This document shows, piece by piece, positions 39,207 through 56,445 of a stretch of 64,000 nucleotides of DNA; positions within the stretch are counted from its first letter, which is position 1; the number at the start of each line of letters is the position of its first letter. Source of the stretch: a virus (Duplodnaviria; Caudoviricetes); the IMG/VR virus record IMGVR_UViG_3300031994_000011, positions 107,959 to 171,958 of that record, one strand, 5' to 3'. The notes under the pieces were generated by a model. The model ran no database searches and was not told the DNA's origin. It saw nothing but the letters and a program-made list of their open reading frames with translations. Made by a program: the position numbers and the translations under genes.

Positions 39207-41279
39207 TCACCCCCTTCTTTCTTTTTTATTTTTCTTTGGTGTATAAAACGTATATTCACTATAGTTTTTCTTCTTCGACATCTTTAGTGCCTTATCTTCA
39301 TAGTACTTTACCCTATAAAGAGCATACTATAACGCTGAGAAGCGGTCCTTTTCTACGGAACGTGAAATACGTTCTATTTTAAATTGGTTCTGCGCACCAG
39401 TTGGTTTAAGTTTCAAATTATTTAATTCATCCATTAGTCGTGATGTCATTATATAAGGCATTAAAAAAATATGTCTATCTACACTAGTCATATTTTTACC
39501 TTTTTTTGTCTTTAATAATTTATCTTTTATTACATTTTCATTCGCTAAGAAAGCGACCGAACCGTTATTTATTTGGGAGAAGAAGTTCGAATGTATTAAG
39601 TCATCATTACTTGAACCAGCTTTTATGTCATAGATTATTCCATTTAAAGAAGGCCAAGGCTCATTGCTCTAGACTTTTTTCTAAGGTGGTAAATGATGAT
39701 CATTATTAAAGGCATAATATGATGGAAATTGCTATCCAGTTTTAAAATCTATAGATGGCAGAACCATAGCATCTAATAGACCAATACCGGGACCGTTACC
39801 GTCAATCACGATTTCGCGCGGATTATATAGTTGAATAAGTTTTTTTAGCCTTGGAGCTTGTTCCGTAATATAGTTCGCGCCATGAATAACTTCAGTATAA
39901 ATAACTTTCTTCTTAAAGCTGGTTTTTTCGGGCATTACTTTAATAACCATAACAGCGGTATTCGCAGCGTATCTCGCAACGTCTCATTTATATTCCATTA
40001 AATTCGCTACATTTAATGCGTTCTTTTATGAACTGCTATATGTTTCCATATAGATTAGACTATATCTTCATCTTATTAAAAGATGCTCCCTTTTTCAGAC
40101 ACCAAACGCTTGTATCTTACATAATAGTCGTTGAACCTTTTCGTAAAGAAAAATCTATAAAATTCTTTACAAACTTGGCTGCGGATTACCTTTTAATACG
40201 GCTTCCCGCAATTTAAGGAGTTATTGCCCTGTCATCACTGGCAGGCGGGGCAAGCTGTTCACCCCTATCAGATAAAATGTGTTTTTATTAACAGGATTCT
40301 CTTGTGCTTTTTTTTCACATTTTAATAAAGTTCTTCTTTTTGCTAATTTTTTAGAGTCAAGCCAAGCCTATTTATTATTACCAGTCCATAGACTTAAACT
40401 TTCACGAGAAAAGCTTTCATCAGACACGGTAGCTGAATAACGCTGGTCCATCATGGTTGCTCTATCCAAAAGACCATAATGAAGAGGAACTTCATAACTT
40501 AAACCCCATACAAAATACTATCTTGGGCGCAAAACAGCATTTACAGCACACTAAATTAACTTACTATACATGAATACTGTCTTTTCGCGCGCGGTAGTAA
40601 TAAAAATTTGAGGAGAAGTAGGTTCTTCTGGATTAAGTGTTCCATCAACCTATCTACGAGCAACGTTCATTTGAGGAAGCAAAACTTCCGTGTAATCTGT
40701 TTCTTCTATTGTCGCGGCCTACTCTAAAATACCGCATGTCGCGCGCAAACCACGGCTCGTGTCTTTTGAAACAACCGTTATATTACTACCATTTTTAAAA
40801 TGTAATTCATAATAGTTACCACTCTTTTTCTAACCAGTTTTACCATCATCAAGGCGAGTAGTAAGCTATTTTCTTAATAAAGGCCAATGACGAAAAATTT
40901 CTTCAAATTTAGCTTCAGCAATTTTTATTACTGTACCTTTTACGTCAGAGGCGATGAATATGTTAGAGTTAGGAAGTAGGACGGCGCGCACAACAGCACT
41001 AAGATAAGCGGTAAAAGACTTGGATGTCGCGCGTGTAGCAGTCCAAAAATGGTATCTGTAACGCATTGATGCGCGCAAAGCAATTCGTTGAAAAAGAAAC
41101 AAATGAAAATGCTTAGCATCACTAGAATCTTGAATTTCATCAAGAAAGCAATCAGGATAAAGAAGCCAATAGTTTAAATATTTTGTAAATAACTATTTAT
41201 TAGCATCTAAAAAAGATTTCGTTAATACTACGCCTTTCTAAATTGGTATTCCATTTCTGTAAGCTACTTCTTCAGCCAT
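39207..41279 (-). CDS. terL: Terminase large subunit, spliced join(41279..40261, 39984..39207), ~598 aa; TAG read-through
   Basis: Walker A-like ATRATSKSF, Walker B RGLRATCGILE*AA, coupling motif IFITTA, nuclease motifs YLIGVDVAR, IVIDGNGPG and KDRFSAL*Y. Confidence 0.9.
39985..40260 (-). mobile_element. ORF-less group I intron (276 nt) in terL
   Basis: Splits Val codon GT|A immediately before the catalytic Asp (G-V-D-V-A-R). P AATTGCGGGAA, Q AATCCGCAGCCAAG, R GGTTCAACGACTA, S AAGATATAGTCT; terminal G. Confidence 0.9.
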
Positions 41280-42208
41280 TATACCAATTCACCTGCCAAC
41301 TCATCCTATCCCTAATAATCAACATCGGCAGTACTGTCAAACTAGACAGCTTCGTTCTCAATTTCTTCAAGGCGCTAAGTAATGTTGAAGCGTTCTTTTC
41401 TATCCTCAACTTGCTATGCGAAATTACCTTCATTTACTACTAATCTCTTTAAATAATTCTGTATATTCTGCATACAAAAATCAATATCATCTTTAGGCTA
41501 AGAAACCCATTTAGGATGCCAACCAAGTTTTCCATAATAAACCATTAGTTCACCTACTGACTCAAAGTCAGCGGCATTTTTCGCGTTAGAGGCTTCAAAC
41601 TTGGCTATTTTAATAATGTTATCGCGGGCATCCATATCCTTTTTTATATCATGCCCCTCCCGCAAGCCTCTCTTTATGCGTAACTAAATTTCGCATAGGT
41701 CGCGCGCGTACTATTGTAAAATAGGAGTAGAAACGTTTTGCGTAGCAATAATCTTATTATAGTAATCCTAAAGAAAAAGCAATTCTTCCTTTGTATATGT
41801 GGAGGACCAAGTTTTTTTTAGTCGCGCAATTTTAGCACTTGAAAGAGCTTCAATTTCTTCATCTATTGTACCTTCTTCGCGCGCTAAGCGCCAACGCTAA
41901 TTTTCATCGCTCCATTGTAGGGCTTGATAATGCTAATCTAGTAACGTATTAAAGTAGGCCGTTAAGGTATGATCTTTATGTATTTTATAAAGTGATGTCC
42001 ATTTATTTAAATCAAATGGCACATCAAGATATCTGCATAACCTATCTACCTATCCTAAGTTTTCTTGGTCTATCATTACTTCTAAGCAGGAAGTACAAAT
42101 TAACGATCTATGGGAAGGAAAAAATTTGGAAGGCGTATATTGAAATTCACTTTCTGGCTTCTATGACTTGCATCGCATGCAACGTCGGGTCTTTGGAACG
42201 TTTGTCAT
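41279..42208 (-). CDS. Zn-finger protein upstream of terL (possible terminase small subunit), 309 aa; TAG read-through
   Basis: MTNVPKTRRCMRC...ICTSC; its stop overlaps the terL start (TAATG). Confidence 0.6.
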
Positions 42209-43466
42209 ACTTGTTCTGCACCCCCCGTTCTATTCTTCTCTTCTTCTCGCATTCCTTACACACAGAAGAGAAGTGGTCTTTTCTACTATTATTTACACCA
42301 AAGAAGACAGTATCGCGTGGAAACACGCGGCCGCATCGAATACAAGCTTTCTGCTCTTCTATTGGTGTTTCTATAAGTAAGCGATTCTTCTTTGCCGTAA
42401 TAGCAATTGCGTTTGGTATTTCGCGCGCAAATATGTTACTTAAGTAGTTTTCGTTGTACTTTAGGCCAAAGCGCGCGAGCAGTTCCTCTATTATTTCTGG
42501 ATATACCATTTTTTTAATTTTCATATCAAGCAAGGCATTACGTATAGGCGAGAAATTACACATCTAGCGGTAGCGCTAAAAGTCAAAAATTAGGGTGCGG
42601 CCGTAGGTCTAAAATTTTTCATGCATGTATTCATAAAGTGCCTGATAATTATTTATCAAGGCTCTTATGTGGGCTGGGTTCTCCCAGTCAAATGTATGTT
42701 GGCGCACTACCCATTTTATCATCCCGTCCTACCTTACCTCATAGTCCTTTAAATTTTTTGAAATTGAGCTAAGTAGCGCGTCATCTACTTTTTGCTGCCA
42801 CTACTATTGTGTTACCCAATAAAAGGAATCAGCGGTCCAATCTACGAATTGGGCGCGAGGCTTGTCAGCCGCCATAAAGTGTATGGTGGGCTTGTAGGCA
42901 TCTTTAAGATAGTATTGGTGCTTACGCAGGTCCGCTAACTGATGTTTTAATTGATAAAGGCGATAGGAGTCAGGTAGAAAGTAGGTGTTCTCGTCAGGCG
43001 GCAGCTTCCCTTCATTTATGGCTACTAACTTTTCTATGCGCTCAATAGATTGCCAAAGGTCGCGCATACCGGGGATGTCGCTGTCGCCCGGATCTAGTAA
43101 CTCGCCTGTCTTCTTATCAAATTTGGGATGATTTATTACGGGCTTGGGATTGGTGTAGGGCCGCCGTATGTTCGCCGGATGTAGGTCTTGCTGGTTTGTT
43201 GAAGGATTCTAAAGGAGCTAATCTAGGGAAAGGTTTTTGTCGTCTTTTTTCTTGAAGGTTGCGTAACGTTTATGGCCATCTGTTACCTATCCTCGTTGGA
43301 CAGCATTATAACCTTCTTCATCTTTTCCGTATAGTATGTAGGACCCCATTTGGTCTAACTAGTCTGGGGTGGGCGGTTTTTCTAATTGACTTAAAATTTG
43401 TTTTACAGCAGCCACGCGGTCGGTGTCTCGCTGGATGCTGTAATCCAGGGTGTATGCTTTTTTCAA
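42147..43466 (-). CDS. First gene of the late operon, 439 aa, with C-terminal CxxC...CxxC; TAG read-through
   Basis: TTG start after GGAGG. ORFs 42804-43067 and 42147-42563 are in frame. CIRCGR...VCKEC. Confidence 0.65.
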
Positions 43467-43504
43467 TATCTACGCCTCCATTTTAAATCCTTACTTATAG
43501 CTTA

Positions 43505-43533
43505 ATTTTAACATATTTTGGAGAAATTGTCAA
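43505..43533 (-). promoter_or_regulatory. sigmaA-type promoter of the structural operon
   Basis: TTGACA-17 bp-TAAAAT with extended TG. Confidence 0.7.
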
Positions 43534-43544
43534 ATATTGGGCTT

Positions 43545-43583
43545 AAAGTTCATTTTTAAAAAGGTAAAGTTCATTTTTAAAAA
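43545..43583. repeat. Tandem direct repeat AAAGTTCATTTTTAAAAA x2
   Basis: Two copies 21 bp apart, just upstream of the late promoter. Confidence 0.7.
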
Positions 43584-43677
43584 AGTTGGTGGAATTTGGA
43601 CACCCGCGGGTGACGGAGCAGTTAGAAGTCCCTAACCGCCTGAATGTAACCGGGGCGGTTACACTAAAAGCTACAAA

Positions 43678-43711
43678 AAAGCGGGGACGGCTTTTTATCC
43701 GTTCCCGCTTT
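43678..43711. terminator. Terminator of the 43731-44525 gene
   Basis: aaagcggggacgg...ccgttcccgcttt stem flanked by A/T runs. Confidence 0.7.
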
Positions 43712-43730
43712 GCTGTTTTCGCACTGCTTT

Positions 43731-44525
43731 TTACTTTTTCAAAACGTCTGAGAGAGTAACAAAGCGTCCGTTTTCGATGGCCTGTTGAAAAGCGTTATAT
43801 TTTCCCGCATTGTATTGCGACATAACCTTGCCCGCTTTGATGGTTAAACCTTTTCCCGATGTAAGGCCGTCAATATCGGATTGAAATTGTCTTTTATCAG
43901 TCCATACACAAACATAATTTTTTACATAATTGATAGCGCCGTCAATGTCGAATTTTTCGCAAAGTTTATAAATGTTCTCTTTGTCAATGTCATCAAACAT
44001 TCCATAAACAACGGTATCAAAGTTTCCCGCCATAAAGTCAAAAACCGTCGCTTGTGTCCATGTCTTGCCGTTGTGCCCGCATTCGATAACACCAAACCGT
44101 TTAGAGATAATGTCGTTATGCAAAGCGTCTTTTACATAAAGCATAGACGGGCGAATAAAGGCGAATTTACAAACAAGCGCGCAACGGACGAGAACTTCAA
44201 GTAAATCACCAAACGCGCCTTTGTCGTTGTCCATTTTATAGCCTTCTCTTTTACAAACAGCTACGAACGCAATATAATCAATAACGGTTATTTTCCCTTT
44301 TTCCATTGCGTAGCGCGTAACTGCGGAATAAGTAAAGGCGTTCAATGCGCTTTCGCTTTCGGACGGGAAAACTGCAGGGAATTTATCCATGCAATCATTG
44401 ATAATTGCGTCTGACTCAGTTTCACAATTCAGGAAGGAACACAGAGCCTCCGGATTAATTTTTTCAATCATTGCGCGGACGGTGTTTTTTTGCAGGGTAG
44501 AGAGGGTATAACGTTCGGTATTCAT
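43731..44525 (-). CDS. Hypothetical protein, 264 aa, possible PD-(D/E)XK-like nuclease; no TAG
   Basis: Intact ORF with its own promoter (TTGCAA 44607-44602, TAGAAT 44584-44579) and terminator. GDLLEVLV...NDII...VIECG spacing is only suggestive. Confidence 0.65.
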   Translation of the reverse strand: MNTERYTLSTLQKNTVRAMIEKINPEALCSFLNCETESDAIINDCMDKFPAVFPSESESALNAFTYSAVTRYAMEKGKITVIDYIAFVAVCKREGYKMDNDKGAFGDLLEVLVRCALVCKFAFIRPSMLYVKDALHNDIISKRFGVIECGHNGKTWTQATVFDFMAGNFDTVVYGMFDDIDKENIYKLCEKFDIDGAINYVKNYVCVWTDKRQFQSDIDGLTSGKGLTIKAGKVMSQYNAGKYNAFQQAIENGRFVTLSDVLKK

Positions 44526-44676
44526 AGGATACCTTCTTTCCGGGCTTTTGCCCTAAAATTGCCTTTTCGGCTATAAGTATTCTATCATAGATAAAAACAG
44601 ATTGCAAGCTTTTTTTTGAAATTCCATATGTTAACACTTTTCCATTAATTGACATTTACATATATTGACAATCATT

Positions 44677-44740
44677 TTAGCACTCACTTAAAAAGAGTGC
44701 TAACAATTTTTTGTTAGCACTCTCTACCAGTGAGTGCTAA
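44677..44740. promoter_or_regulatory. Two tandem perfect CIRCE elements (HrcA operators)
   Basis: TTAGCACTC-N9-GAGTGCTAA at 44677-44703 and 44714-44740. Confidence 0.9.
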
Positions 44741-44746
44741 TATTTC

Positions 44747-44830
44747 ATGAAACGTTTCATCATTTCATTATTTTCATGAAACGTTTCATAGAGCATTTCA
44801 TCATTTCATCGTTTTCATGAAACGTTTCAC
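44747..44830. promoter_or_regulatory. Three LacI-family/cre-like palindromes ATGAAACGTTTCA(T/C)
   Basis: Copies at 44747-44760, 44776-44789 and 44817-44830; CG-centred palindrome. Confidence 0.6.
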
Positions 44831-44854
44831 GCGGTTACCACCATAAAATGAAAA

Positions 44855-45060
44855 TATTACGAAAATGTTACGATTGTAATACTTTTGTAACAATTTTTTT
44901 GTACTTTTTGGCCATTTTTTGACCATAAACGCCTTGGATGTAATACATCCAAAGCTGAAGGTTGCATTTTTGAGTCAAAAATGCTATAATTAGATGATGG
45001 AAGGAGCTTCCAGAGTCTGTAAATGTTACGGAAATGTTACAATTGTAACAGAATCGTAAC
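44855..45060. promoter_or_regulatory. WalR/OmpR-family-like direct-repeat boxes in two 37-bp blocks
   Basis: TATTAC-N5-TGTTAC-N3-TGTAAT-N5-TGTAAC (44855-44891) and TGTTAC-N5-TGTTAC-N3-TGTAAC-N5-CGTAAC (45024-45060). Confidence 0.5.
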
Positions 45061-45151
45061 AATTCCAGAAACTGGTGGATCCGCCCACCAGAGGCAGGCG
45101 CCAGCGGCGCCGCCGCTCTCCCGTCTCCCGCCTGGTCCCTAATATATACGA

Positions 45152-45215
45152 AGGAGCTGGAGCTGGAAGCTGGAGCTGGAAAACGGAGCTGGAGCTGGAG
45201 CTGAAGAAAGGAGCT
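45152..45215 (+). repeat. GGAGCT hexamer tandem repeat in the leader of the first early gene
   Basis: ggagctggagctggaagctggagctggaaaacggagctggagctggagctg...ggagct. Confidence 0.8.
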
Positions 45216-45221
45216 ACAACA

Positions 45222-45386
45222 ATGAAGAGCTACGAAATCATCTACAACAGGGCGCGGAAAGAATTTAATGTCTGGGCGATCGGAAGCAACGGCAACGCGG
45301 AGATCGTCAAGCGGGCCACCACAAAAAGGAGTTATGAATTGTGGCTCATGCGTAAGGGCGTGAGCAATTGGACCGATAGAACGTGA
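45222..45386 (+). CDS. Small early protein, 54 aa (family A)
   Basis: SD AAAGGAG; YNRARKEF motif shared with 46909 and 48210. Confidence 0.7.
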   Translation: MKSYEIIYNRARKEFNVWAIGSNGNAEIVKRATTKRSYELWLMRKGVSNWTDRT

Positions 45387-45541
45387 ACCTTGCTCATGGT
45401 CCGGCCGAAGGCGACAAGCCTTCGGCCTTTCACAATTTGGATGTAATACATCCAAAGTTACTCGTTGACACCCGATGGACATCGGGTGTATAATAAGACC
45501 ATAGAAAGAGGTCAACCTCTTACCGAAAGGAGATCACCACA

Positions 45542-45697
45542 ATGAAAACCACCACCACTTACGCCGTTATCACTTGCGACACCTTCCGCACGATCAAGTC
45601 CGGCTTCAAGACTTGGGAAGGCGCGTATGAATGGATGCTCGCGCATGACTGGGGCCAGTACGAACTTGAGGGCGGCCTTTACGTGATCAAGTGCTAA
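45542..45697 (+). CDS. Small early protein, 51 aa
   Basis: TTGACA/TATAAT promoter, SD AAAGGAG, MKTTTTYAVITC... Confidence 0.7.
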   Translation: MKTTTTYAVITCDTFRTIKSGFKTWEGAYEWMLAHDWGQYELEGGLYVIKC

Positions 45698-45873
45698 GCG
45701 CGCCGATCACGCAAAATCCGGGCACCGTGAGAAATCACGATGTCCAAAGTAATTGGATGTAATACATCCAAGTTTTCAGAGCATTTGAGAAAAAAATTTC
45801 TTGATATTATTGTCATGCTATAATATAATATAATTGTCCTAAGGGACAGAATAAAAGAAAGAAGGAAAAAATC

Positions 45874-46077
45874 ATGTTTAATGAACTGAATGTCGAACTC
45901 GCCGTTGTTTTTGCCCATTATGCGGAACACAGGGATTCTCGCGTTGCTTTCCTCGGCAGGAAGGCCGATCATGAAGAACTGACCGATGTGGAAATGACCG
46001 AATACATCAACCGCCTTGAGCGTCTATACAAGCAATTTCGCGCTGAACGCGCCGCCCTCCTCGGGGAAAAGGGCTAA
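45874..46077 (+). CDS. Small early protein, 67 aa
   Basis: Promoter, SD and terminator. Confidence 0.7.
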   Translation: MFNELNVELAVVFAHYAEHRDSRVAFLGRKADHEELTDVEMTEYINRLERLYKQFRAERAALLGEKG

Positions 46078-46215
46078 GGCCCTTTTTCTTTTTTCACGAA
46101 AGTTGGATGTAATACATCCAAAAAGCGACCGTTGACAACCGTTCCCGGTTGTGGTATAATGGGCGTAGCCCGAGAGGGAAAGGGGAACACCACCACCAAA
46201 GGAGGATTATTAAAC

Positions 46216-46461
46216 ATGTCTAAAAACACTTTTGATTGCATTGACTTCCGCACCGCTCGCCGCCTTGCTGCTCACGGCTGGACTATTTTTTCACGCGATA
46301 CCGGTGAAGGCTGGCAATGGAACACGGCGGCCTGCTCTGCGCGTCACATCCGTCGCGGCATGAGCGGACAGCCGGACGAGATTCGCGCTTGTCTCGCGTG
46401 GCTTGGGAAGAGCCAACCGAAGGTCTTGACTTTTAAGGCTAAAAAAGAAAAATGGGAATAA
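46216..46461 (+). CDS. Small early protein, 81 aa
   Basis: SD GGAGG; start refined to MSKNTF. Confidence 0.7.
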   Translation: MSKNTFDCIDFRTARRLAAHGWTIFSRDTGEGWQWNTAACSARHIRRGMSGQPDEIRACLAWLGKSQPKVLTFKAKKEKWE

Positions 46462-46573
46462 TCCCATTTTTCTTTTTTCAATAACTTTGGATGTAATACA
46501 TCCAAAGTGCTCTCTTGCATAATCCAAAGGATTATGCTAAAATAAGACATAATCAGAAAGGAGGTCAGTAAAA

Positions 46574-46747
46574 ATGACCGAACAAGTTTACTACTACATG
46601 AATAAAGAACACGGTTACTTGGTTACAGGATGGGAACTTTACAGTGACGCATTATCTATGCACTATGATGATATCACAGATCCGACAAGTGTCGAATACC
46701 TTAACTTTTCTCTTCACTATACTAAAACAAGGTATGTGGCAAAGTGA
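46574..46747 (+). CDS. Small early protein, 57 aa
   Basis: SD AAAGGAGGT; MTEQVYYYMNKEHG... Confidence 0.65.
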   Translation: MTEQVYYYMNKEHGYLVTGWELYSDALSMHYDDITDPTSVEYLNFSLHYTKTRYVAK

Positions 46748-46908
46748 TCACAAGTAAAAAGTAAATAAAGACAATGAATAAGAGAGAATACAATAAGTAT
46801 TCTCTCTTTTATATATACCATAATTGGATGTAATACATCCAAAAAGAGTAGTTGACAACGTTGTTGTCAACTGTTATAATGGTATCATCAAAGAAGGAGG
46901 TAAGTACA

Positions 46909-47043
46909 ATGACTTACACAAAACAGTACAACAAAGTAAGGAATGAATGGTGGATATTCAAGGTAACAGCAACAGGTTCCGAACTGATCAAGGTGTTCAA
47001 GACTGAAGGTTCCGCAGACAAGTGGATTGCAAAGCATATGTAA
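46909..47043 (+). CDS. Small early protein, 44 aa (family A)
   Basis: SD AAGGAGGT; paralogue of 48210-48344. Confidence 0.75.
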   Translation: MTYTKQYNKVRNEWWIFKVTATGSELIKVFKTEGSADKWIAKHM

Positions 47044-47182
47044 TACGCAGGCCTTCGGGCCTTGCGAAAGTTGGATGTAATACATCCAAAATGAAAATGA
47101 TCGAAGGGGTTGACATTCTCTATTGATAGGTGTATAATGAGTGTAGTTCCAAGAGGGACACAAAAAGAAGGAGGACACAAAA

Positions 47183-47350
47183 ATGTTGAAAGTTTACAAT
47201 AAGGCCACCTACCGCTTCGGCGAAATCATCGACGGTGAGACCACCGAACAGGGTGAGAGCTGGATCCTCGTCCGCTGGGATTGCAGTCCTTTGTATCCCG
47301 ACTGGATCGACGCGGCCGACGATCGTTACACTATCATTGATCGCCGTTAA
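47183..47350 (+). CDS. Small early protein, 55 aa
   Basis: SD GGAGG; MLKVYNKATYRFGEI... Confidence 0.7.
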   Translation: MLKVYNKATYRFGEIIDGETTEQGESWILVRWDCSPLYPDWIDAADDRYTIIDRR

Positions 47351-47479
47351 AAAAAGCAAGGCGAAAGCCTTGCTTTTTTCTACGCATAATTGGATGTAAT
47401 ACATCCAAAAAGCGTACTTGCAATCTTGTCTTGTTTGTGCTATACTTGTACCATAAAGAAAGCAAGGGAGGCCATCACA

Positions 47480-47782
47480 ATGTTGGAAATGCTCAAGTCT
47501 CTGAAAAACTCTGACGGCGCAACTCTGAAAAATTACAAGTCTGTTTCTTACAAGACTGGTTGGCAAGTAGCCGATCACGGGCTGGAATGCCGCACCGCGG
47601 AGGAAGCTGCTGCCGCGATTGACTCTTTCAATGGGAGCTGCGGGATCTGGTACGAAAACGGCGTGTATTACATCGATCACAGCTTCCGCGTCAAGACGAA
47701 AAAGGAAGCTCTTTCCATCGGCCGCGCGCACAATCAAATTTCCATCTTGAAATGGTCCGATATGTCTCTGGTGTACTGCTAA
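47480..47782 (+). CDS. Early protein, 100 aa
   Basis: SD GGAGG; start refined to MLEMLK. Confidence 0.75.
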   Translation: MLEMLKSLKNSDGATLKNYKSVSYKTGWQVADHGLECRTAEEAAAAIDSFNGSCGIWYENGVYYIDHSFRVKTKKEALSIGRAHNQISILKWSDMSLVYC

Positions 47783-47908
47783 GGCAGTACCCAGTTTCAG
47801 CATTTGGATGTATTACATCCAAAAACTCCTCTTGACTTTATGTGGTGGTTGTAGTATTATATACTTGTCCGAAGGGAAAAAACAGATTTTCAAGGAGGTT
47901 TATTAACT

Positions 47909-48109
47909 ATGTCTTATTCTTACGAACTGACCGCCCGTTTCCCCGTCATGGTCCGCGTGTACACCAGCGCCGGCGAGATCGTCGAACATTGCGCGCGCTC
48001 TCTCCGCGCCGCGCATGGGTGGTTTGCGCATTGCGCGGCCGAAGAATACTTTGAAGGACACCCCGTGCGGGTGGAATATGAATTTTACGAAGGGTACAGG
48101 TGGGGATAA
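47909..48109 (+). CDS. Small early protein, 66 aa
   Basis: SD AGGAGGT; terminator over the stop codon. Confidence 0.7.
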   Translation: MSYSYELTARFPVMVRVYTSAGEIVEHCARSLRAAHGWFAHCAAEEYFEGHPVRVEYEFYEGYRWG

Positions 48110-48209
48110 CCCACCTGTTGTTTTTTGGATGTAATACATCCAAAAAGGACTCTTGACTGTATTTCCCCTTTATGCTATAATGATACCATCAAAGAAGGAG
48201 GTAACAGCA

Positions 48210-48344
48210 ATGAGGTATGTGAAGCAGTTTAACAAGGCGCGCAAGGAATGGTGGATTTTCCGCGTGACGATGGACGGCGCCGAACTGACGAAGGTTTTTA
48301 AGACGGAAAAAGCTGCCGACAGCTGGATCCGCAAAAACACTTAA
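48210..48344 (+). CDS. Small early protein, 44 aa (family A)
   Basis: SD AAGGAGGT; KEWWIF..ELTKVFKTE.AD.WI shared with 46909. Confidence 0.75.
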   Translation: MRYVKQFNKARKEWWIFRVTMDGAELTKVFKTEKAADSWIRKNT

Positions 48345-48587
48345 GAGCTGGGCGGTATAACCGCCCAATTTCATTTTATTTTTGTTTTAATGATATTAAA
48401 AAAATTGTATATATAAAAATTATAAAATAAAACCCCACTCAATTTCATTTTTAAATATAATAAAAATTTTCAAAAATGAAAATTGGATGTAATACATCCA
48501 AAACCACCCCTTGACTTTATAGACCGGTTATGCTATTATATACTTGTCCGAAGGGACAAGAGATAAAAAAGAAAGAAGGACACAAAA

Positions 48588-48866
48588 ATGAAGAAATCTG
48601 TTAACGGTCACAATTACGCGCAGGCGAAAGAAATCATCTATGAAGACGGACGGCGTGAGCTGGTGAGCTACACCACAACCGTGATCGAAATCACGGCGGA
48701 CGGCTGGATGACCGTACACGGGCTGTACAGCCGCACTACGATCAAACACATCGGGTGGTTTATGCGTGAGATCGGCCTTACGTACCAACACGCGAAAAGA
48801 GCATACGAACGGCGCGACATTGAACAATTCAACGTTTACACCGGGGAGGTGAAGGAGGTGGCGTAA
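48588..48866 (+). CDS. Early protein, 92 aa
   Basis: Promoter, SD and terminator; LVSYTT...GLYSRTTIKHIGWF. Confidence 0.75.
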   Translation: MKKSVNGHNYAQAKEIIYEDGRRELVSYTTTVIEITADGWMTVHGLYSRTTIKHIGWFMREIGLTYQHAKRAYERRDIEQFNVYTGEVKEVA

Positions 48867-48990
48867 GCCACCTCTTTTTTTCATCTTCTAATTGGATGTA
48901 ATACATCCAAAACGTCCACTTGCTTTTTCAGGCATTCTGTGGTATACTTATATCATCAAGTGAGGGGTTGATCCCCAGAGGGAGGCCACT

Positions 48991-49137
48991 ATGTGGTATG
49001 TTTGTGATGAGTTCGGGTTCGCGTGGAGCAAGGGCATAGAAACTCTTGAGGAGGCGCAGCTGCAGCTGGAAGAGCTGCGCGCCGATGCCCGCAAAAAGGG
49101 CTGGGACTGGGGCTTTGAGATTGAAAAGCGGGGCTGA
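48991..49137 (+). CDS. Small early protein, 48 aa
   Basis: SD GGAGG; MWYVCDEFG... Confidence 0.65.
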   Translation: MWYVCDEFGFAWSKGIETLEEAQLQLEELRADARKKGWDWGFEIEKRG

Positions 49138-49268
49138 CCCGCTTTTCTTTTTATCACGCAGATTGGATGTAATACATCCAAAATGAATAGTTGACTTTCT
49201 TAAGATACTATGATATACTTATACCATCAAGTGAAGGACAACACTTAAAAACCAGAGAGGAAACTACA

Positions 49269-49442
49269 ATGTATCAGATTGTCAGGGTTTATGATGATGG
49301 CGCCACCGCAGCAGAGACCGCCCCTTCCTTCGTTTCCGCGCTGACCGCTTGCACGATCTACCTTGAGGATCCGAGCTGCATCGCAATAAAAATCAAGGAT
49401 CTCCGGGACAACAAAACCGTCATGGAATACTGGGCGGATTAA
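49269..49442 (+). CDS. Small early protein, 57 aa
   Basis: Leader hairpin motif; MYQIVRVY... Confidence 0.7.
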   Translation: MYQIVRVYDDGATAAETAPSFVSALTACTIYLEDPSCIAIKIKDLRDNKTVMEYWAD

Positions 49443-49556
49443 CCGCCCTTTTCTCGTTTGGATGTAATACATCCAAAATCCGAGATTGACTTTTCTATGA
49501 TTATATGTTATCATATACTTGTCCGAAGGGATAACAAATGAAAGGGGATTGAAACT

Positions 49557-49796
49557 ATGTGGCTTTTCTACTCTTACACTGATGGCTATATTCCTATGGG
49601 ATCTGATGGACAAATGAAAGTGCCTTCTTCTATGCGTTCAATGAAAAGCATCCAGAAGCTGGCAACGGCCTTCCTCGGCAAGCGAGCTGGGAGCGTGTAC
49701 CTCATGACCAGCTGGACGCAGGCGATGAGCGAGCTGGGACCGCGCGCGTTTGAAGAATATATCTTTCGCAATGGAAAGAAGGTTGCTCACTCATGA
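49557..49796 (+). CDS. Small early protein, 79 aa
   Basis: Promoter, SD and terminator. Confidence 0.7.
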   Translation: MWLFYSYTDGYIPMGSDGQMKVPSSMRSMKSIQKLATAFLGKRAGSVYLMTSWTQAMSELGPRAFEEYIFRNGKKVAHS

Positions 49797-49883
49797 GCAA
49801 CCTTTCTTTTTTAGTTAATATTGGATGTATTACATCCAAAATACCTTATTGACTTATTTCATTTTTCATGCTATACTATATTT

Positions 49884-50056
49884 GTCGAAAGGAAGAAAGG
49901 AGAGATGAAAAAATGACTCCCCCGCATTAAAGTAAGCCAGCGCATAAGATGCTTTATGCGGCGGCACTATTAAACGGAGAGCATCCTCCCGTTCCAGAAA
50001 GTGGCGGAGCTGGAGCGATTGAGCCAAACTGGACGATCAGCGCAATCGTCCAGTTT
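49884..50056 (+). ncRNA. Putative structured small RNA (only mini-ORFs MKK and MTPPH)
   Basis: Palindrome and promoter, then hairpins (gcataag...ttatgc) and an aaactggacgat/atcgtccagttt terminator; no ORF of note. Confidence 0.4.
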
Positions 50057-50152
50057 ATTTATATTGGATGTATTACATCCAAAAACGACCGTTGACTTTC
50101 TCACCCCTTTATGGTATACTTAAACCATCAAAGGAAAGGAAGGTAACAAACT

Positions 50153-50479
50153 ATGACGGAAAATATGACCTATCATTGCAGGGTTGAACGTGCTGACCGC
50201 GTGAACTGGATTATCAATGAAATCGGTTTGGGGCAGATTGTCAAGGAAAAGTATGGCAACATCAACGGCAAAGCTGCAACCTACACTTGCATCACCGATA
50301 CTGGCGTGACCATCATCAAGACGGGCGACAAGAAAGCAATCATCACTATGTATATCACCACCGCGCGGGAGCTGGTAGCTGTATACGGCGGGCAGAAAAA
50401 AATCCCTCTCGCCCTTCGGAAAAAGGTTGACCACAATCAGAGCAAATACATCAGGAACGGGAAAACAGTTTGGGCCTAA
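50153..50479 (+). CDS. Early protein, 108 aa
   Basis: Promoter, SD and terminator. Confidence 0.75.
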   Translation: MTENMTYHCRVERADRVNWIINEIGLGQIVKEKYGNINGKAATYTCITDTGVTIIKTGDKKAIITMYITTARELVAVYGGQKKIPLALRKKVDHNQSKYIRNGKTVWA

Positions 50480-50575
50480 CGGCCCAAATTTTATTTGGAT
50501 GTAATACATCCAAAAACCCCTCTTGCATTTCTCATAAAAATATGATATTATATAACCATGAAAGGGGTGTGTGAA

Positions 50576-50782
50576 ATGACTACAACGTGGCACTTTGAAG
50601 TATGGGGCGAGGACAGCGACCTTTTTGGTGAGCAGTTCTTTGTAGAGGTCGAAGGCAACCTTGACACGGCGAAGGCGAGGGCTATGGCGATCGCGCAAGA
50701 AAATTTTCCCGGCGAGCTGCTGAAATGCTGGGGACGTGTTTCTAAGCTGACAGCTGAAATGGCTGGATATGATACCTACTAA
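50576..50782 (+). CDS. Small acidic early protein, 68 aa
   Basis: MTTTWHFEV...AEMAGYDTY. Confidence 0.7.
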   Translation: MTTTWHFEVWGEDSDLFGEQFFVEVEGNLDTAKARAMAIAQENFPGELLKCWGRVSKLTAEMAGYDTY

Positions 50783-50909
50783 GGCGCGAAAGCGCCTTTT
50801 AGAGTTTGGATGTATTACATCCAAATTCTCTTCTTGCATAAATCCACCTTCTATGTTATAATGTTTGTGAAAAGAGGAAGGATACCTCACAAACCAGAAA
50901 GGCACTACT

Positions 50910-51347
50910 ATGACTATTTGGTTCGATATGGATGGCACAATTGCGAATCTGTACGCTGTTGAAGGCTGGCTTGACTATCTCATTAACGAAAATGTTTATC
51001 CTTATGCGAAAGCTGAAACCATGCTTAATTTTTCTTCCTTCGCAAAGCTGCTGAACAAGCTCCAGAAAAAGGGCTACAAAATTGGCATTATCTCGTGGAT
51101 GAGCAAATGCGGCTCTGAAAACTATAATCTCGCCGTTGAGACCGCAAAACGCGCTTGGCTCGCTCGGCACCTTCCTTCGGTTGAATGGGACGAAATTAAA
51201 ATTGTCCGTTATGGCACCGATAAATACATCACTTGTGGCGGCGGCATTCTGTTCGATGATGAACAGGGAAACCGTGATGGTTGGAAGGATAGAGCATATG
51301 AACCTTGCAAAATTATGGAAGTATTAAAAGAACTGCTTAACAGTTAA
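50910..51347 (+). CDS. HAD-superfamily phosphatase (5'(3')-deoxyribonucleotidase-like)
   Basis: Motif I IWFDMDGTIA and motif IV ILFDD. Confidence 0.8.
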   Translation: MTIWFDMDGTIANLYAVEGWLDYLINENVYPYAKAETMLNFSSFAKLLNKLQKKGYKIGIISWMSKCGSENYNLAVETAKRAWLARHLPSVEWDEIKIVRYGTDKYITCGGGILFDDEQGNRDGWKDRAYEPCKIMEVLKELLNS

Positions 51348-51489
51348 TGCAATGAGCGCGGCGAGCGCTCCCGTATTGGATGTAATACATCCAAATCACA
51401 TTTCAAAAAAAGACTTGACTTTTCCTTTTTACGTGATAAAATATATATGAAAGCGGAAGGAAAACCGCCCAAACCAGAAAGGTTATGAA

Positions 51490-52476
51490 ATGGCCAAAAC
51501 TCTCAAGTTCCTTGTAGTTGATACTGAAACCGCCACCCTGCCCATGTGCTCTGAAATTGCGTATGATGCTGAAAGCAAGAAAAAGCTCGCAATCGCTAAG
51601 CCCCTCATTTATGATATTGGCTGGAACATCACTAACCGCAAGGGCGAAATTCTCGGTCATAAGCAGTTCCTCATCGCAGAGACTTTCTGTGTTCCTCAGG
51701 TTTTTAATACTGCCTATTATGCAGAGAAGCGGCCCATCTATCTGAAAATGCTTGAACGTGGTGAAACCGTCATTAAAACTTGGGACGAAGTTATGACTAT
51801 CTTCCTTCAAGACATGCGGTCCGTTGATGCCGTGGGCGCGTTTAATTCCATGTTTGATTTTAAGAAGGCTATCCCCTTCACCGAACTGTATATCCGCAAT
51901 CTATATAGCCCCCGTTATAGCGATTGGGAAAAAATTCAGTATGATTCTTGTATGAGAATTTTGAGCAACAACAGACCCGAAAGAAACCCGAATTTTGATG
52001 CCGATAATTTTTCCTTCCGTGGCGAAAGCTTCCCCCTGTTCGACCTTTGGGGCCTTGCCGCAAAGATTCTTCTGAATAATGCCACCTATAAGAAGAATTG
52101 CCTTGACCATGATTTGCTTTCCTCTTCCGGCCTTTATTTCAAGACAAGCGCAGAATCTACCTATCAGTATATTTGTGATAAATATGATTTTTGCGAAAGT
52201 CATACCGCCTTGGACGACGCCACCATTGAAACCTTTATCCTTTCTAAGATTGCTTCCCGCCATGCTATTAGCATTGGGATTATCTTCTTCCCCTTTAGAG
52301 AACTCGGCGAAACCGTAGAGTTTATCACCCGGCGTAAGGCTCCGAATATTAACGAATGCGAAAAAGTGGCGAATGCGATTCGGGCCCACCTTGAAACGAA
52401 AGAAGAGGGCACCCCCTATTATAGCAAAATGGAAAAGAAACTTGATTTGATTCTTAAGTATCTTGAAAGGGCGTAA
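51490..52476 (+). CDS. DEDDh 3'-5' exonuclease (DnaQ-like), 328 aa
   Basis: VVDTETA, AFNSMFD and HTALDDA motifs. Confidence 0.85.
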   Translation: MAKTLKFLVVDTETATLPMCSEIAYDAESKKKLAIAKPLIYDIGWNITNRKGEILGHKQFLIAETFCVPQVFNTAYYAEKRPIYLKMLERGETVIKTWDEVMTIFLQDMRSVDAVGAFNSMFDFKKAIPFTELYIRNLYSPRYSDWEKIQYDSCMRILSNNRPERNPNFDADNFSFRGESFPLFDLWGLAAKILLNNATYKKNCLDHDLLSSSGLYFKTSAESTYQYICDKYDFCESHTALDDATIETFILSKIASRHAISIGIIFFPFRELGETVEFITRRKAPNINECEKVANAIRAHLETKEEGTPYYSKMEKKLDLILKYLERA

Positions 52477-52593
52477 GCCCTTTTTTCGTTAAAACGAAAT
52501 TGGATGTATTACATCCAATATTTTTCCCTTGACTTTTCTCAAAACTATGCTATAATAAACTTGTCTCAAAGAGACAGAAAGGAAGTAAAAAAT

Positions 52594-52749
52594 ATGACTC
52601 GCGATGAAATCATTAACTTTATTAACAAAGTTCTTCAAACCAATCCACAAGCATTCACACAGGATGAAGTTATTGAAGAAAACTATATTTATATTCCTGC
52701 CATTGAATTGATTAAAGATGCTATCACTGGTGAATGGCGCGCAATTTAA
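52594..52749 (+). CDS. Small early protein, 51 aa
   Basis: SD GAAAGGA; MTRDEII... Confidence 0.6.
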   Translation: MTRDEIINFINKVLQTNPQAFTQDEVIEENYIYIPAIELIKDAITGEWRAI

Positions 52750-53026
52750 TTAGTAAATTATTCTTGACAAAATGAGGAGCAATAAACTCCTCATTTTTAT
52801 TTTTTATAAATATTGGATGTATTACATCCAAATCAACTTATTGACTCCATTTCAAATCTATGCTATACTATCATTGTTCCGAGAGAGAAGGGAAAGTGGC
52901 GCGCGACACTTAACCCCTCTCAAAGAAAAAAAGTTTCAAAAGCCCCTTGACAATCAACCGAATCCATGCTATAATAAATCCGTAAGAAAGAGAAGGACAC
53001 TCTTAAAAAACCAGAAAGGGAAGATT

Positions 53027-53359
53027 ATGAAGAAGTCCACCATGATGAAAATTGCTGACTACATCCGCAATGTTCCCGAACTCGTTGAAGAGTTTGCCGA
53101 AATCGATGCCGAACTCAGCAAGACTGCCGAGAAGGCGAATGCTACCCGAGAACTCTATGGAACCGCACATGACATCGTGATGAGCGTTATGTCTGAAGTC
53201 CCCGCCACGGTGGCTGATATCTTCGCCAAGTGCGAAAGCGAACTCCCCGAAGGTTTTACTAAAGCAAAGGTTCAGTATGCACTCCTTAATTACTGGAAGG
53301 ATGAGGTCGTTAAGATTGATAACGGCAAGCGGTCGCCCATGACTTACCGCAAGGCGTAA
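53027..53359 (+). CDS. Putative winged-helix DNA-binding protein, 110 aa (family B)
   Basis: TVADIF...ELPEGFTKAKVQYAL...W shared with 59932 and 56008. Confidence 0.7.
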   Translation: MKKSTMMKIADYIRNVPELVEEFAEIDAELSKTAEKANATRELYGTAHDIVMSVMSEVPATVADIFAKCESELPEGFTKAKVQYALLNYWKDEVVKIDNGKRSPMTYRKA

Positions 53360-53465
53360 TATTAAGTTAAAAAAGAAAGGACCCTATGAAAATAGGGTCC
53401 TTTCTAATTTCAAAATGAAATTGGATGTAATACATCCAATTTCGTATCACAAAAAGAAAAGGGGA

Positions 53466-53801
53466 TTACTCCCCTTCTTCCTCTTTCTTCTTCTTATTTT
53501 CCCGTTCCTTCGCCTTACGTTCTTTTTCGGCGTTCTTCTCAGCCTTTTCCTTCGCCTTCAATTCCTTTTCAGCCTTCCATTCTTCAGCGGCTTCGTAAGG
53601 GTCGAACGCAGGAGAAATTTTCGTGGGCTTGTACGCCTTGGACTTCACGGTGACTTCAGTCCAGACTTCCTGCCCGTCAATATTCTGCAGGATAGCGAAG
53701 GAAGCATCGGCGAACTGAACAGCTTCATTGGCGTTGAGGACTTCGGTCAGAGCGGTCACAGTCAGGTCACGAGCGGTGGTCTTAATTTCGTTAGCGGTCA
53801 T
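53466..53801 (-). CDS. Early protein with Lys/Glu-rich tail, 111 aa (family C)
   Basis: Inverted cassette with promoter, leader hairpin and terminator. Confidence 0.75.
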   Translation of the reverse strand: MTANEIKTTARDLTVTALTEVLNANEAVQFADASFAILQNIDGQEVWTEVTVKSKAYKPTKISPAFDPYEAAEEWKAEKELKAKEKAEKNAEKERKAKERENKKKKEEEGE

Positions 53802-54040
53802 ACAACTTTCCTTTCTGGTTTTTTAGGCTTTTCCTTGCCTTTGTTATGATTTATTATAGCATGGATTTTAATGATAGTCAAGTGCTTTTTAAAAAATTTT
53901 TTACTTATAACATAACAATATTTGGATGTATTACATCCAATAAATATTAAAATTTTATTACAAAATTTTTAATTACCCCTTGACTTTTTCTTTAAGATAT
54001 GTTACAATTTAATTACAAAAGAAAAGGAGATGTTAAGAAA

Positions 54041-54193
54041 ATGTTGAAACTTATGGGAGTAGTTGGAAGTTTTATGACGGTAATTGGAATCTCCAGCGGC
54101 ATTCTTAATAGGTCCATGCTTGTCATCGCCGCAATTGGTCTTACCCTTATGAGTGTCAGCATTATGTTTCTTCCAAAAAATGATAATTTTTAA
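54041..54193 (+). CDS. Small membrane protein, 50 aa, two hydrophobic helices
   Basis: SD AAGGAG; LMGVVGSFMTVIGISSGIL and MLVIAAIGLTLMSVSIMFL. Confidence 0.65.
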   Translation: MLKLMGVVGSFMTVIGISSGILNRSMLVIAAIGLTLMSVSIMFLPKNDNF

Positions 54194-54368
54194 TAAAAAA
54201 ATACTTGACAAAAATCAAATTTCATGTTATAATTATAATATAAAAAAGGAGGGAGAAAACTTTTGGATATATTACATCCAAACCCCGACTATTGACCCCG
54301 CATGAATTTTATGCTATACTATACCCGTGAAAGGGAAGGAAAACCCCAAACCAGAAGGAGTGTGTTTT

Positions 54369-54776
54369 ATGAGTAAAGCGTCTCTTGAAAATGGTATCCG
54401 TAACGACATTCTCGCCGCCATCTCCGACCTGCTCGGCAAAAAGTATGATACTGATGTCCTTGTTACTGGCAGCAATGAAATCTGTATCCCTTGCCTTGAC
54501 TCTGAAGGGAATGAAAAGTACGCCGTGATTAAAGTTAGCATTCCCCGCGGTGAACGTAGCGGCGGCACCTATAAACCCTATAACGGATACAGTGTTGCCG
54601 AAGATTATGCCGCAGACGTGCAGGAAAGAACCGCTAAAGCCGAAGCACGCGCCGAAAAGAAAGCACACGAAGAAGCAGAGCGGGCGCGCAAGCGTGAAAT
54701 GCGCACCGTGAAGGTCAAAGAAACTGAAATGAAGAAGAAACTTGCCGAAGTGGCAAAACTTGGAAAGGAGGGCTAA
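54369..54776 (+). CDS. Early protein, 135 aa (family C)
   Basis: DSEGNEKYAVIKV and basic/acidic tail, similar to 62165 and 53466. Confidence 0.75.
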   Translation: MSKASLENGIRNDILAAISDLLGKKYDTDVLVTGSNEICIPCLDSEGNEKYAVIKVSIPRGERSGGTYKPYNGYSVAEDYAADVQERTAKAEARAEKKAHEEAERARKREMRTVKVKETEMKKKLAEVAKLGKEG

Positions 54777-54879
54777 GCCCCTCTTTCTTTATTGGATGTA
54801 TTACATCCAAAAATAAATATTGACTTTTTAAAAAACTTATGATATACTTTAATCACAAAATGAAGGGAGTGATTGAAGA

Positions 54880-55125
54880 ATGAAGATTTACGTTGCTACT
54901 GTTAAAAACGACCCTCTTGATACTGCAGATTCTTACGTTCTTGGAGTATACCCAAGCGAAGAAAAAGCAAATGAAAACATTAACAAATGGATAAATTTTC
55001 GTGGCGACAAATTAATTGATTATGCCCGGGAAGAAAGATTCTATCTTTATGATGAAGACGAGGACATGAATTTTCAGATTGACGTTGAAAGCGCCGACCT
55101 TGATAATGAACCTTGCTACGATTAA
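54880..55125 (+). CDS. Small acidic early protein, 81 aa
   Basis: VLGVYPSEEKA motif; promoter and terminator. Confidence 0.7.
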   Translation: MKIYVATVKNDPLDTADSYVLGVYPSEEKANENINKWINFRGDKLIDYAREERFYLYDEDEDMNFQIDVESADLDNEPCYD

Positions 55126-55377
55126 CGGCCTTCGGGCCTTCTTGATTATTGGATGTATTACATCCAAATCAAATAGTTGGCTTCTTAGAGAATCTGTGGT
55201 AATATATAATTGTTCCAAGGGGAAAGGAAAGGAGGCCAGGGTTAAAAAAAACTTAAAAAAAGTTTTGAAAAGCCCTTGACAAACTTCCAAATCTCTGGTA
55301 TAATAAAGATGTTCCAAGAGAGGAACACAAGAAATCGGGAAGGAAAACCCAAGCCAAACCAAAAAGGATTTACCACT

Positions 55378-55458
55378 ATGAAGAAAACCTCTTACGAAGC
55401 CACCTACGCCACTCTGACCTCCATCAACTACGATAACGCCGAAAAGGACATGCTATAA
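55378..55458 (+). pseudogene. Truncated family-B-like gene (26 aa)
   Basis: Full promoter and leader, MKKTSYEATY start resembling the MKKS paralogues, then an abrupt stop followed by an out-of-frame acidic tail. Confidence 0.4.
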
Positions 55459-55489
55459 TAGAGGATAATGAAGAAGAGGAGGAATAAGG

Positions 55490-55657
55490 ATGTTAAGAGA
55501 AGAATTAGTAAAAAATTATTTCTGGCATAAAATGGCGGACCTTCTCGAAGAGGCACAAGAAAATGGTTTCTGCTTCGGCTTTACCAATGGTAACGGCGAA
55601 GTTGTCTATTGGACTGATTCAGAAAGTTTAGATTTTACCGTTGAATCTATTGACTAA
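55490..55657 (+). CDS. Small acidic protein, 55 aa
   Basis: SD GGAGG; MLREELVKNYFWH...; terminator follows. Confidence 0.6.
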   Translation: MLREELVKNYFWHKMADLLEEAQENGFCFGFTNGNGEVVYWTDSESLDFTVESID

Positions 55658-55754
55658 ACAGACTTCGGTCTGTTTGGCCGGCCCGTTAATATAATTGTAA
55701 TAAAATCTTAACACTTTTGTAATTGACTTTCTGGCAAATTATGATATAATATAA

Positions 55755-55910
55755 TTGTTCCAAGGGAGAGAGTGCCCAAGTGGTGTGGTGACGCCCAGCA
55801 AGACCTAACACAGTTCGATTCTGTTCTCCTCTCTCATGCGGTTCCTTCGGAAGGTAATCGGATAATGGCGTAAAAGTGGTTCAAGTCCACGCTCCGCAAA
55901 CCTGGAACAA
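55755..55910 (+). ncRNA. Putative ncRNA with two tRNA-like T-arm modules
   Basis: Promoter TTGACT-17-TATAAT; closing stem TTGTTCCA/TGGAACAA; ACAG-TTCGATT-CTGT and GTGG-TTCAAGT-CCAC arms. Confidence 0.5.
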
Positions 55911-56007
55911 AAAATTTCTAAAAACACTTGACATTATAAGCACTCTGTGCTATAATGAATACACAACAAGGGAAGGAAAACCCTCAAAAACCAGAAGGGA
56001 AATTATT

Positions 56008-56445
56008 ATGACTAAGAAAGACGCTCTTACTATCGCTCTGACCACGCTGACCGCTCCCACCTACGCCAATCCCAGCTTTGACGGTAAGGATACCACTCGC
56101 AAAGAAATTCCCGTTGAAGAAGTCCGTGAAGTCATTACCAAGATGATTGAACAGCTGATGAAGAGGGGCACTACCTCTGATAAGGCGAAGGAAGCCCGTA
56201 AGGCTAAGACCGCCGAAGCTCGCTCTGAACTGGTCAAGACTGTTGCTCCCGTTCTCCGCAAGGCTCTGACCGCCGCTCCCGAGGGTATGACCGCTAAGGA
56301 CTTGTTCGCCGCCTGTGAAAAGGAACTGCCCGAAGGTTTCACCGCCGCCAAGGTTCAGAATGTCCTTCTCCGTGAGATGGCCCCCGAACTGGAAAAGGTA
56401 GAAGAGAAGCGTAAGGCTAATGTTTACCGCCTGATTCAGGGCTAA
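56008..56445 (+). CDS. Putative winged-helix protein, 145 aa (family B)
   Basis: MTAKDLFAACEKELPEGFTAAKVQNVLL. Confidence 0.75.
   Translation: MTKKDALTIALTTLTAPTYANPSFDGKDTTRKEIPVEEVREVITKMIEQLMKRGTTSDKAKEARKAKTAEARSELVKTVAPVLRKALTAAPEGMTAKDLFAACEKELPEGFTAAKVQNVLLREMAPELEKVEEKRKANVYRLIQG

Follow-up and report, generated by a model that had tools for sequence, protein, structure and literature searches.

Host-type operator sites cluster at the late–early junction of a large SPbeta-like phage and may form a docking platform for host DNA-binding proteins

Results

Genes and features at the junction

The window analysed here is a stretch of 64,000 bp, the last 64 kb of a complete phage record of 171,958 bp obtained from sheep gut, which has a 127-nt end overlap. 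The phage is SPbeta-like, amber-recoded and 172 kb in size, with a structural block of SPbeta type as judged from the PHROG 2739 portal and, in relatives, the YonG and YonB families. The cluster of sites described below is located where a leftward late block meets a rightward early region in which every one of the small genes has a promoter to itself. TAG is read through in the late genes (window 1–43481), where the residues aligned to TAG in relatives are Glu in 5911 cases versus Gln in 401; genetic code table 15 was applied only as TAG read-through. A single ORF at 9340–28074, with 6244 codons of which 195 are TAG, likely encodes a tape-measure-type protein. The PHROG 5767 gene is followed in the late block by YonG-like, terminase, portal and YonB-type capsid genes. 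From the late to the early side, the junction holds the following features in this order (those listed without strand are unstranded sites):

42147–43481, minus strand: first late-block gene, PHROG 5767, annotated as sigma factor, TAG read through
43580–43660, minus strand: family-conserved element upstream of the first late gene (G-run, ~45 bp, then CCCAAATTCCACCAAC)
43621–43636: DtxR-type site inside the preceding element, one mismatch to the scan pattern
43731–44525, minus strand: nuclease-like protein of 264 aa, PD-(D/E)XK (restriction-endonuclease-like) by prediction
44579–44607, minus strand: predicted sigma-A promoter of the nuclease-like gene
44677–44703: CIRCE element 1 (HrcA-type operator), perfect 9-9-9 inverted repeat
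44714–44740: CIRCE element 2, perfect arms, spacer unlike that of CIRCE 1
44747–44760, 44776–44789 and 44817–44829: three CG-centred palindromes (ATGAAACGTTTCA), LacI-family-like
44856–44891: WalR-type four-box unit 1, two pairs of 11-bp period, head to head
44934–44952: phage-specific palindrome, copy 1 (TGGATGTAWTACATCCA), 37 copies in the window
44962–44990, plus strand: first early promoter, predicted sigma-A, by consensus match only
44964–44984: 21-bp palindrome spanning the first early promoter
45025–45060: WalR-type four-box unit 2, a head-to-head unit of 36 bp
45143–45215, plus strand: oriented AGCTGG repeat tract, ahead of the first early ORF (45222–45386)

The product of 43731–44525 is probably a PD-(D/E)XK nuclease, as suggested by a predicted fold of pLDDT 91.6 and by the invariant residues E110, D138, E148 and K154. 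The fold matches were weak and in the background range (NhoI, Z 5.3, rmsd 4.3, 113 aligned residues; I-Ssp6803I, Z 5.0), Foldseek returned a weak match (E 0.74), Pfam gave no match, and a word-avoidance analysis gave no nuclease target. Across the family, some 51 of the 64 ORFs that come first in this slot belong to five groups, found in either orientation, and all five show a restriction-endonuclease-type motif when judged by eye. This swappable slot for restriction-endonuclease-like genes, with at least five divergent groups, adjoins a candidate packaging element: the G-run/CCCAAATTCCACCAAC motif is present in 52/74 loci, and we consider the 43580–43660 element a candidate pac/packaging or terminus site. 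Mapping of a terminus there failed, since contig ends, the only ends available, do not pile up at the element. On the early side, AGCTGG-type tracts also occur in many relatives, including L022, L012, L130 and L273, with a strand bias of 428 versus 110 over the 74 loci, and are possibly Chi-like; some relatives carry oriented TGGAGG words within arrays in their place.

Assembled contigs of an RNA-library run cover the flanking genes and not 44559–45018, a gap that in itself proves nothing. An Rfam search of the stretch returned only chance-level matches, and a structured RNA was consequently rejected. The cumulative GC skew turns at the junction, as a replication-origin mark would have it; this turn coincides, however, with the switch of coding strand, and no DnaA box was found from 40311 to 58532.

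Two CIRCE elements and three CG-centred palindromes

The original prediction, made from the DNA alone, had listed in this non-coding stretch two perfect CIRCEs, three palindromes and two repeat blocks, with no chaperone gene beside them, and all of these were recovered. It had passed over the first early promoter, the 21-bp palindrome across it, copy 1 of the phage-specific palindrome and the DtxR-type site at 43621. The CIRCE consensus, an inverted repeat TTAGCACTC-N9-GAGTGCTAA, is matched by two perfect copies in the window, which are the only CIRCEs in the 171,958-bp genome even with up to three mismatches allowed. Measured to the −35 hexamer, CIRCE 1 is 69 bp upstream of the predicted promoter for the nuclease-like gene, and CIRCE 2 is 221 bp upstream of the first predicted early promoter; neither occupies the position used in hosts, on a chaperone or hrcA operon promoter or immediately past it. 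Pfam searches for HrcA, GroEL and GroES found none of the three in the genome, nor were Rex or LacI domains found in it, and OmpR-type domains were absent across 8 phage genomes. Two TTGACA hexamers 17 bp apart, at window 44648–44673, have no matching −10.

The three palindromes sit inside a 41-bp tandem duplication, and their core TGAAACGTTTCA, at 44748, 44777 and 44818, has no other exact copy in the genome. They had been attributed to CcpA or to LacI-family regulators. The CcpA label had to be dropped, because the core spans 12 bp from TG to CA where cre requires 14 bp (TG-N4-CG-N4-CA), and because the word is not enriched in Clostridia (6/121 genomes versus 11 for a control word); of the clostridial matches, one has a LacI gene next to it and another is surrounded by sugar-type genes. 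A family search over 16 genomes added nothing. When the genome was shuffled 30 times with an order-2 Markov model, not one of the three motif types occurred. Thus, the three motif classes are confirmed as real at this site and unique in the genome.

WalR-type units and early promoters

The repeat blocks had been described as 37-bp blocks of TGTWAH-N5-TGTWAH repeats; rather than a simple tandem array, each is a 36-bp head-to-head unit of structure GTTAC-N6-GTTAC-N4-GTAAY-N6-GTAAC. The WalR box TGTWAH-N5-TGTWAH is matched at 44875, 45024 and, on the opposite strand, 45045, and the head-to-head doubling departs from its textbook form. Unit 1 ends 70 bp ahead of the first early promoter's −35 (68–70 bp in 8 phages), and unit 2 begins 34 bp past the −10 of this promoter (25 or 34–35 bp in 9 phages), so that the two units bracket this promoter at fixed distances and look cis-regulatory.

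In genomes of the host class, TGTWAC-N5-TGTWAC precedes genes for G5 (5 genes), peptidoglycan-binding (4) and M23 (3) domains, together with S11, NlpC/P60, LysM, MreB and MurA-type genes, among 37 genes hand-picked from the nearest ORFs. This content (peptidoglycan hydrolases, carboxypeptidases, mreB and murA-type genes) suggests that the tandem TGTWAC regulon is of WalR type and, by extension, that a WalR-type regulator would bind the phage units.

The early promoters carry a further element. A 17-bp palindrome is present in 37–38 copies, from 44934 to 63862 of the window and at about position 426 of the genome, just upstream of early-promoter −35 hexamers; counting the phage's own palindromes, 166/255 lie 1–20 bp upstream of a promoter. 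The possibility that a host protein reads these 37 copies was rejected, the word being found in 12/151 Clostridia genomes versus 20 for a control. Other family members have related but different early-promoter palindromes. Being neither enriched in hosts nor constant between phages, these palindromes are probably the phage's own and probably read by a phage protein.

Host regulators predicted for the motifs

The assignments of CIRCE, CtsR and Rex motifs rest on established consensus sequences. For the commonest motif of the family the gene context in Clostridia was informative: GTTAG-N6-CTAAC occurs in 28/61 genomes, versus 10 for the control, and among 34 genes that follow it are FeoA (7), FeoB (6), DUF3793 (4) and an iron-dependent repressor (4), with DUF2325 and flavodoxin, the latter read by eye, also found. 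Since it precedes iron-uptake and DtxR-family repressor genes, we regard it as an operator of a host iron repressor. For the HisR-like motif the counts show no enrichment (5/121 versus 5 in the control), and its label, drawn by eye from gene context and from the regulon contents described for HrcA, CtsR, Rex and HisR in clostridia (PMC3828012), is tentative.

A phage protein might read such sites in place of host regulators. A candidate would be the product of a conserved MarR-type winged-helix gene among replication genes (G000:86842–87159), which has a weak, below-cut-off match to the DtxR N-terminal domain. Its helix, however, is the same whether a genome has 1 site or 17, and it is unlike that of clostridial DtxR. 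The motifs also agree with host regulons gene for gene and track the host lineage, as with cre in Enterococcus phages. The protein is an unlikely, though conceivable, reader of some of the sites.

Site content of related phages

Protein searches yielded 74 non-redundant junctions, three of them found by motif only, which are not statistically independent samples. Most of these relatives have host-regulator-type sites at the junction or in the next ~20 kb, and some lack every scanned motif. Upstream of the first late gene, DtxR-type GTTAG-N6-CTAAC is present in 62/74 loci, CtsR-like boxes in 29/74, the HisR-like palindrome in 26/74, four-box units in 7/74 and Rex boxes in 6/74. CIRCE is present in 14/74, or in 10/70 when the window and the three motif-only loci are left out; its frequency may be somewhat inflated, as the query alignment held motif-found phages. 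Over the 74 loci, the counts in early, late and shuffled DNA were 22/0/0 for CIRCE, 40/0/1 for CtsR, 59/6/0 for Rex, 371/4/4 for DtxR-type and 31/0/0 for WalR-type sites. In four relatives, 72 of 73 exact iron-repressor sites fall within one block of 8–22 kb, and genome G003 has no sites in some 10 kb of its other non-coding DNA.

The 31 CIRCEs of the family have 31 distinct spacers, with conservation of 90–100% in the arms and 32–45% at spacer positions. A search of related phages for such clusters, as the original prediction had called for, showed that relatives carry 1–4 CIRCEs at the same junction, each with a different spacer and without host-promoter flanks, so the stretch is neither a recent capture of a host promoter nor absent from relatives. 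Recent capture was also rejected because the similarity to host CIRCE loci is limited to short matches around the arms. Fixed arms with free spacers and no host-promoter homology past the arms likewise speak against neutral promoter debris. In a close strain, whose nuclease-like protein is 72% identical and whose early flank is 82% identical, there is one CIRCE with a new spacer and a CtsR box, and the CG palindromes are lost. Copy number varies too, as in L010, with four CIRCEs at a 49-bp period, and L272, with 37 Rex boxes, many of them in ~2.7 kb of gene-free DNA. The platform thus appears to be kept while its content turns over quickly, and the sequence comparison supports the view that the sites are host-type operators maintained by selection on binding.

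A few further observations were made on these loci. In L272 (Ga0310690_10002172), the DNA ~3.1–0.6 kb upstream of the first late gene holds Rex and DtxR-type sites and a palindrome, ATAACGCGTGTTAT, and a related word recurs in the Enterococcus phages VRE9_2 and EF1. In L035 (2520–2750), Rex-, LexA- and CIRCE-type sites were seen by eye between apparently convergent genes, without a promoter. The early region, which faces away from the late block in the window and in most relatives, faces it in L005, L006, L143, L148, L168 and L187, suggesting inversions. Hits in metagenome-assembled genomes look like mis-binned phage contigs and pointed to no host. Finally, a CIRCE stands no more than 100 bp from the start of many unrelated viral contigs, mostly of 30–50 kb (L023, L034, L044, L064, L065, L090, L108, L114 and L120), which are perhaps prophages integrating at chaperone promoters.

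Cultured relatives

Among distant relatives with GenBank records are Enterococcus phages, and two of these, VRE9_2 and EF1, share the layout of early genes, a non-coding gap and then further genes, PHROG 5767 being among them in VRE9_2. In a patch of 1.3 kb, the gap contains three Rex boxes, two perfect cre sites, and two palindromes that we take to be CzrA-like and one that we take to be dre-like, at 94–1052 bp from the nearest predicted promoter. Such perfect cre sites and Rex boxes are a content matched to the host. In VRE9_2 (PP680568.1, 140 kb), where the patch spans about 131,250–132,560, all five Rex and all five cre matches lie at 122.9–132.4 kb. No Rex or cre sites were found in Bacillus phage Kirov or Geobacillus phage E3.

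Position of the sites relative to promoters

None of 562 repressor sites in the family overlaps a strong predicted promoter or lies within 20 bp upstream of one, against ~177 expected for random non-coding positions, a comparison in which promoters are predicted sigma-A promoters, the non-coding mask is rough, and fixed motifs can seldom coincide with consensus hexamers. With a looser promoter threshold the figures were 16 and ~194, respectively, and only 35/562 sites lie 1–40 bp downstream of a predicted promoter. Hosts behave differently: 15/23 DtxR-type sites and, at the looser threshold, 11/15 CIRCEs overlap a promoter or lie 1–40 bp downstream, so that the host-like position, on or just after a promoter, is taken by 65% of host iron-repressor sites and by 6% of the 562 phage sites. 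Repressor sites that stay off promoters, unlike those of the hosts, favour a role as decoys or in docking.

Discussion

Possible decoys on replicating DNA

We tentatively propose that the stretch could be a platform of two parts, situated where the early region begins, on which DNA-binding proteins of the host dock. In one part, the CIRCE pair and the CG-centred palindromes would belong to a fast-changing, family-wide set of host-repressor operators, for HrcA, CtsR, a DtxR-type iron repressor, Rex and a HisR-like factor, and for CcpA and Rex in the Enterococcus relatives. Lying off the phage promoters, these operators would most likely act in trans as decoys: as the genome replicates, the extra perfect operators would pull repressors off the host chromosome, opening regulons for chaperones and proteases, ferrous-iron uptake, flavodoxin, fermentation enzymes, and amino-acid and sugar uptake. 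In the other part, the two WalR-type units would act in cis on the first early promoter that they bracket, probably through a loop. Repressor binding, titration, the benefit to the phage and looping are what we infer from the arrangement of the sites.

For sites selected for binding and not placed to repress the phage, titration is the simplest use, and we regard a titration decoy on replicating DNA as a plausible reading, with some reserve. The idea of a decoy had been put forward in the original prediction, with induction of GroEL as an example; it fits the multiplied, promoter-distal repressor sites, whereas a purpose specific to GroEL is weakened by the presence of CIRCE in only 14/74 loci and by the commonest site being of the iron-repressor type. 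Several points count against decoys. Titration should be independent of position, yet nearly all sites lie within ~8–22 kb of the junction; the regulator sets are interchangeable, and some relatives have no scanned motif; two sites on one incoming genome would titrate little; derepression would be useless if the nuclease-like protein destroyed host DNA; and in 4/16 CIRCE loci a CIRCE does lie within 60 bp after a weak −10. In a wider formulation, we lean towards a swappable cassette of perfect operators for several repressors, kept off the phage's own promoters, tuned to the host lineage and present also in cultured Enterococcus phages, which would either derepress chaperone, iron, redox and nutrient regulons or dock proteins on the entering genome.

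Possible docking on entering DNA, and possible sensing in cis

Because the sites keep to one block and the regulators interchange freely, a positional role fits almost as well as titration. Here the block, beside the packaging site, would enter first, and any tightly binding host protein would suffice to ratchet the DNA in, to pause injection, or to shield the free end from nucleases or end-sensing defences. This agrees with the restriction of the sites to one block by the candidate packaging element and the nuclease-like gene, with the free variation of regulator identity among relatives, and with the oriented short repeats that accompany the arrays; most of the named factors, moreover, bind DNA in unstressed cells. 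Parallels come from T5, where a non-coding stop signal in the first-entering DNA, with a nuclease gene, holds 8 DnaA boxes proposed to act on DNA entry (10.1101/866236), and from SPbeta, which packages from a site upstream of the structural genes (10.1101/2021.11.22.469490). On the other hand, contig ends show no pile-up at the candidate terminus element, the terminal repeat of Kirov is 22 kb from its YonG-like gene, and the factors identified are nearly all repressors of useful regulons and not abundant nucleoid proteins. Overall, we judge a positional role rather unlikely.

Somewhat more doubtful is that all the sites regulate the two divergent promoters and other early promoters, either distally or through looping. 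Host stress, iron, redox and growth state would then delay or tune the lytic programme. Sensing by the divergent promoters had been suggested at the outset, and the fixed spacing around the first early promoter retains it for the WalR-type units, for which we favour action in cis, but the repressor sites are mostly off promoters and avoid the positions used in hosts. Some figures do point to regulation: many CIRCEs lie 34–85 bp upstream of the nuclease-gene −35, and 100/371 DtxR-type sites lie 21–60 bp upstream of a promoter against ~41 at random; precedents are Spo0A in phi29 (PMC2731898) and CtrA in Caulobacter phages (PMC9437464). Against this, the distance from CIRCE to promoter ranges from 34 to >300 bp across phages, the nearest predicted promoter is hundreds of bp away from arrays in L272 and up to 1 kb away in VRE9_2, and no lysogeny switch is evident from a search for tyrosine integrases, which found none in 5 complete genomes. 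The roles as decoys, in docking and in cis-sensing are not mutually exclusive. That the sites are read by phage proteins, are neutral debris of host promoters or mark a replication origin we consider, on the evidence given above, to be unlikely.

Implications

Takeover of the host by phages has so far been described nearly entirely through proteins and a few RNAs. If the sites are decoys, non-coding phage DNA would reprogramme host transcription, a takeover without proteins by large Firmicute phages, and the cassette would list the regulons that limit phage growth, namely protein folding, iron and flavodoxin, redox, amino acids and sugars. If they serve docking, the sites would give a natural example in which host proteins aid or pause the entry of DNA, a question that has long been open for large phages. 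For uncultured phages, the motif set also offers a hint of the host lineage. As an equivalent Rex/CcpA patch exists in cultured Enterococcus phages, and CcpA and Rex are well studied, the question is testable.

Comparison with known systems

The window CIRCEs, here in tandem, have the same perfect 9-9-9 repeat as those of the groESL and dnaK operons controlled by HrcA, the class I heat-shock regulon (PMC3828012); they differ in belonging to a phage without HrcA, GroEL or GroES, and in lying upstream of promoters at variable distance. The Spo0A boxes of the Bacillus phages phi29 and Nf (PMC2731898) are likewise host-regulator sites near early promoters of virulent Firmicute phages, and the WalR-type units resemble their arrangement. 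There, one host factor acts on promoters and origins with a demonstrated outcome (PMC2731898), while the window family has at least five candidate factors in changing combinations, and repressor sites off promoters. The CtrA sites of Alphaproteobacteria phages, linked to 'lytic deferment', are similarly enriched in non-coding DNA across relatives and lie in promoter regions and regulate phage genes, unlike the repressor sites described here (PMC9437464); a word search of that paper found no titration model. With promoters as predicted, a position on or abutting phage promoters, as in phi29 and for CtrA, was found for none of the 562 repressor sites, and the geometry of the WalR-type units fits it. 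The T5 injection-stop signal (10.1101/866236, a model paper) is also a repeat-rich non-coding block with host-protein sites and a nuclease gene nearby; it has a conserved geometry for a single factor and a known two-step injection, whereas the window family varies in content.

Titration of regulators by operators is itself familiar from E. coli datA and from the 'escape synthesis' caused by lac and gal transducing phages, cases that are chromosomal or accidental. In synthetic decoy systems (PMC7826281, PMC8599769), extra operators pull a repressor off its targets, as proposed here, but those sites are engineered. In a literature search that omitted most subscription journals, we found no description of a dedicated viral cassette for several repressors that avoids promoters. 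Thus, host-factor sites on phage DNA and operator titration are both already known, and what would be new, if the decoy or docking role holds, is the category.
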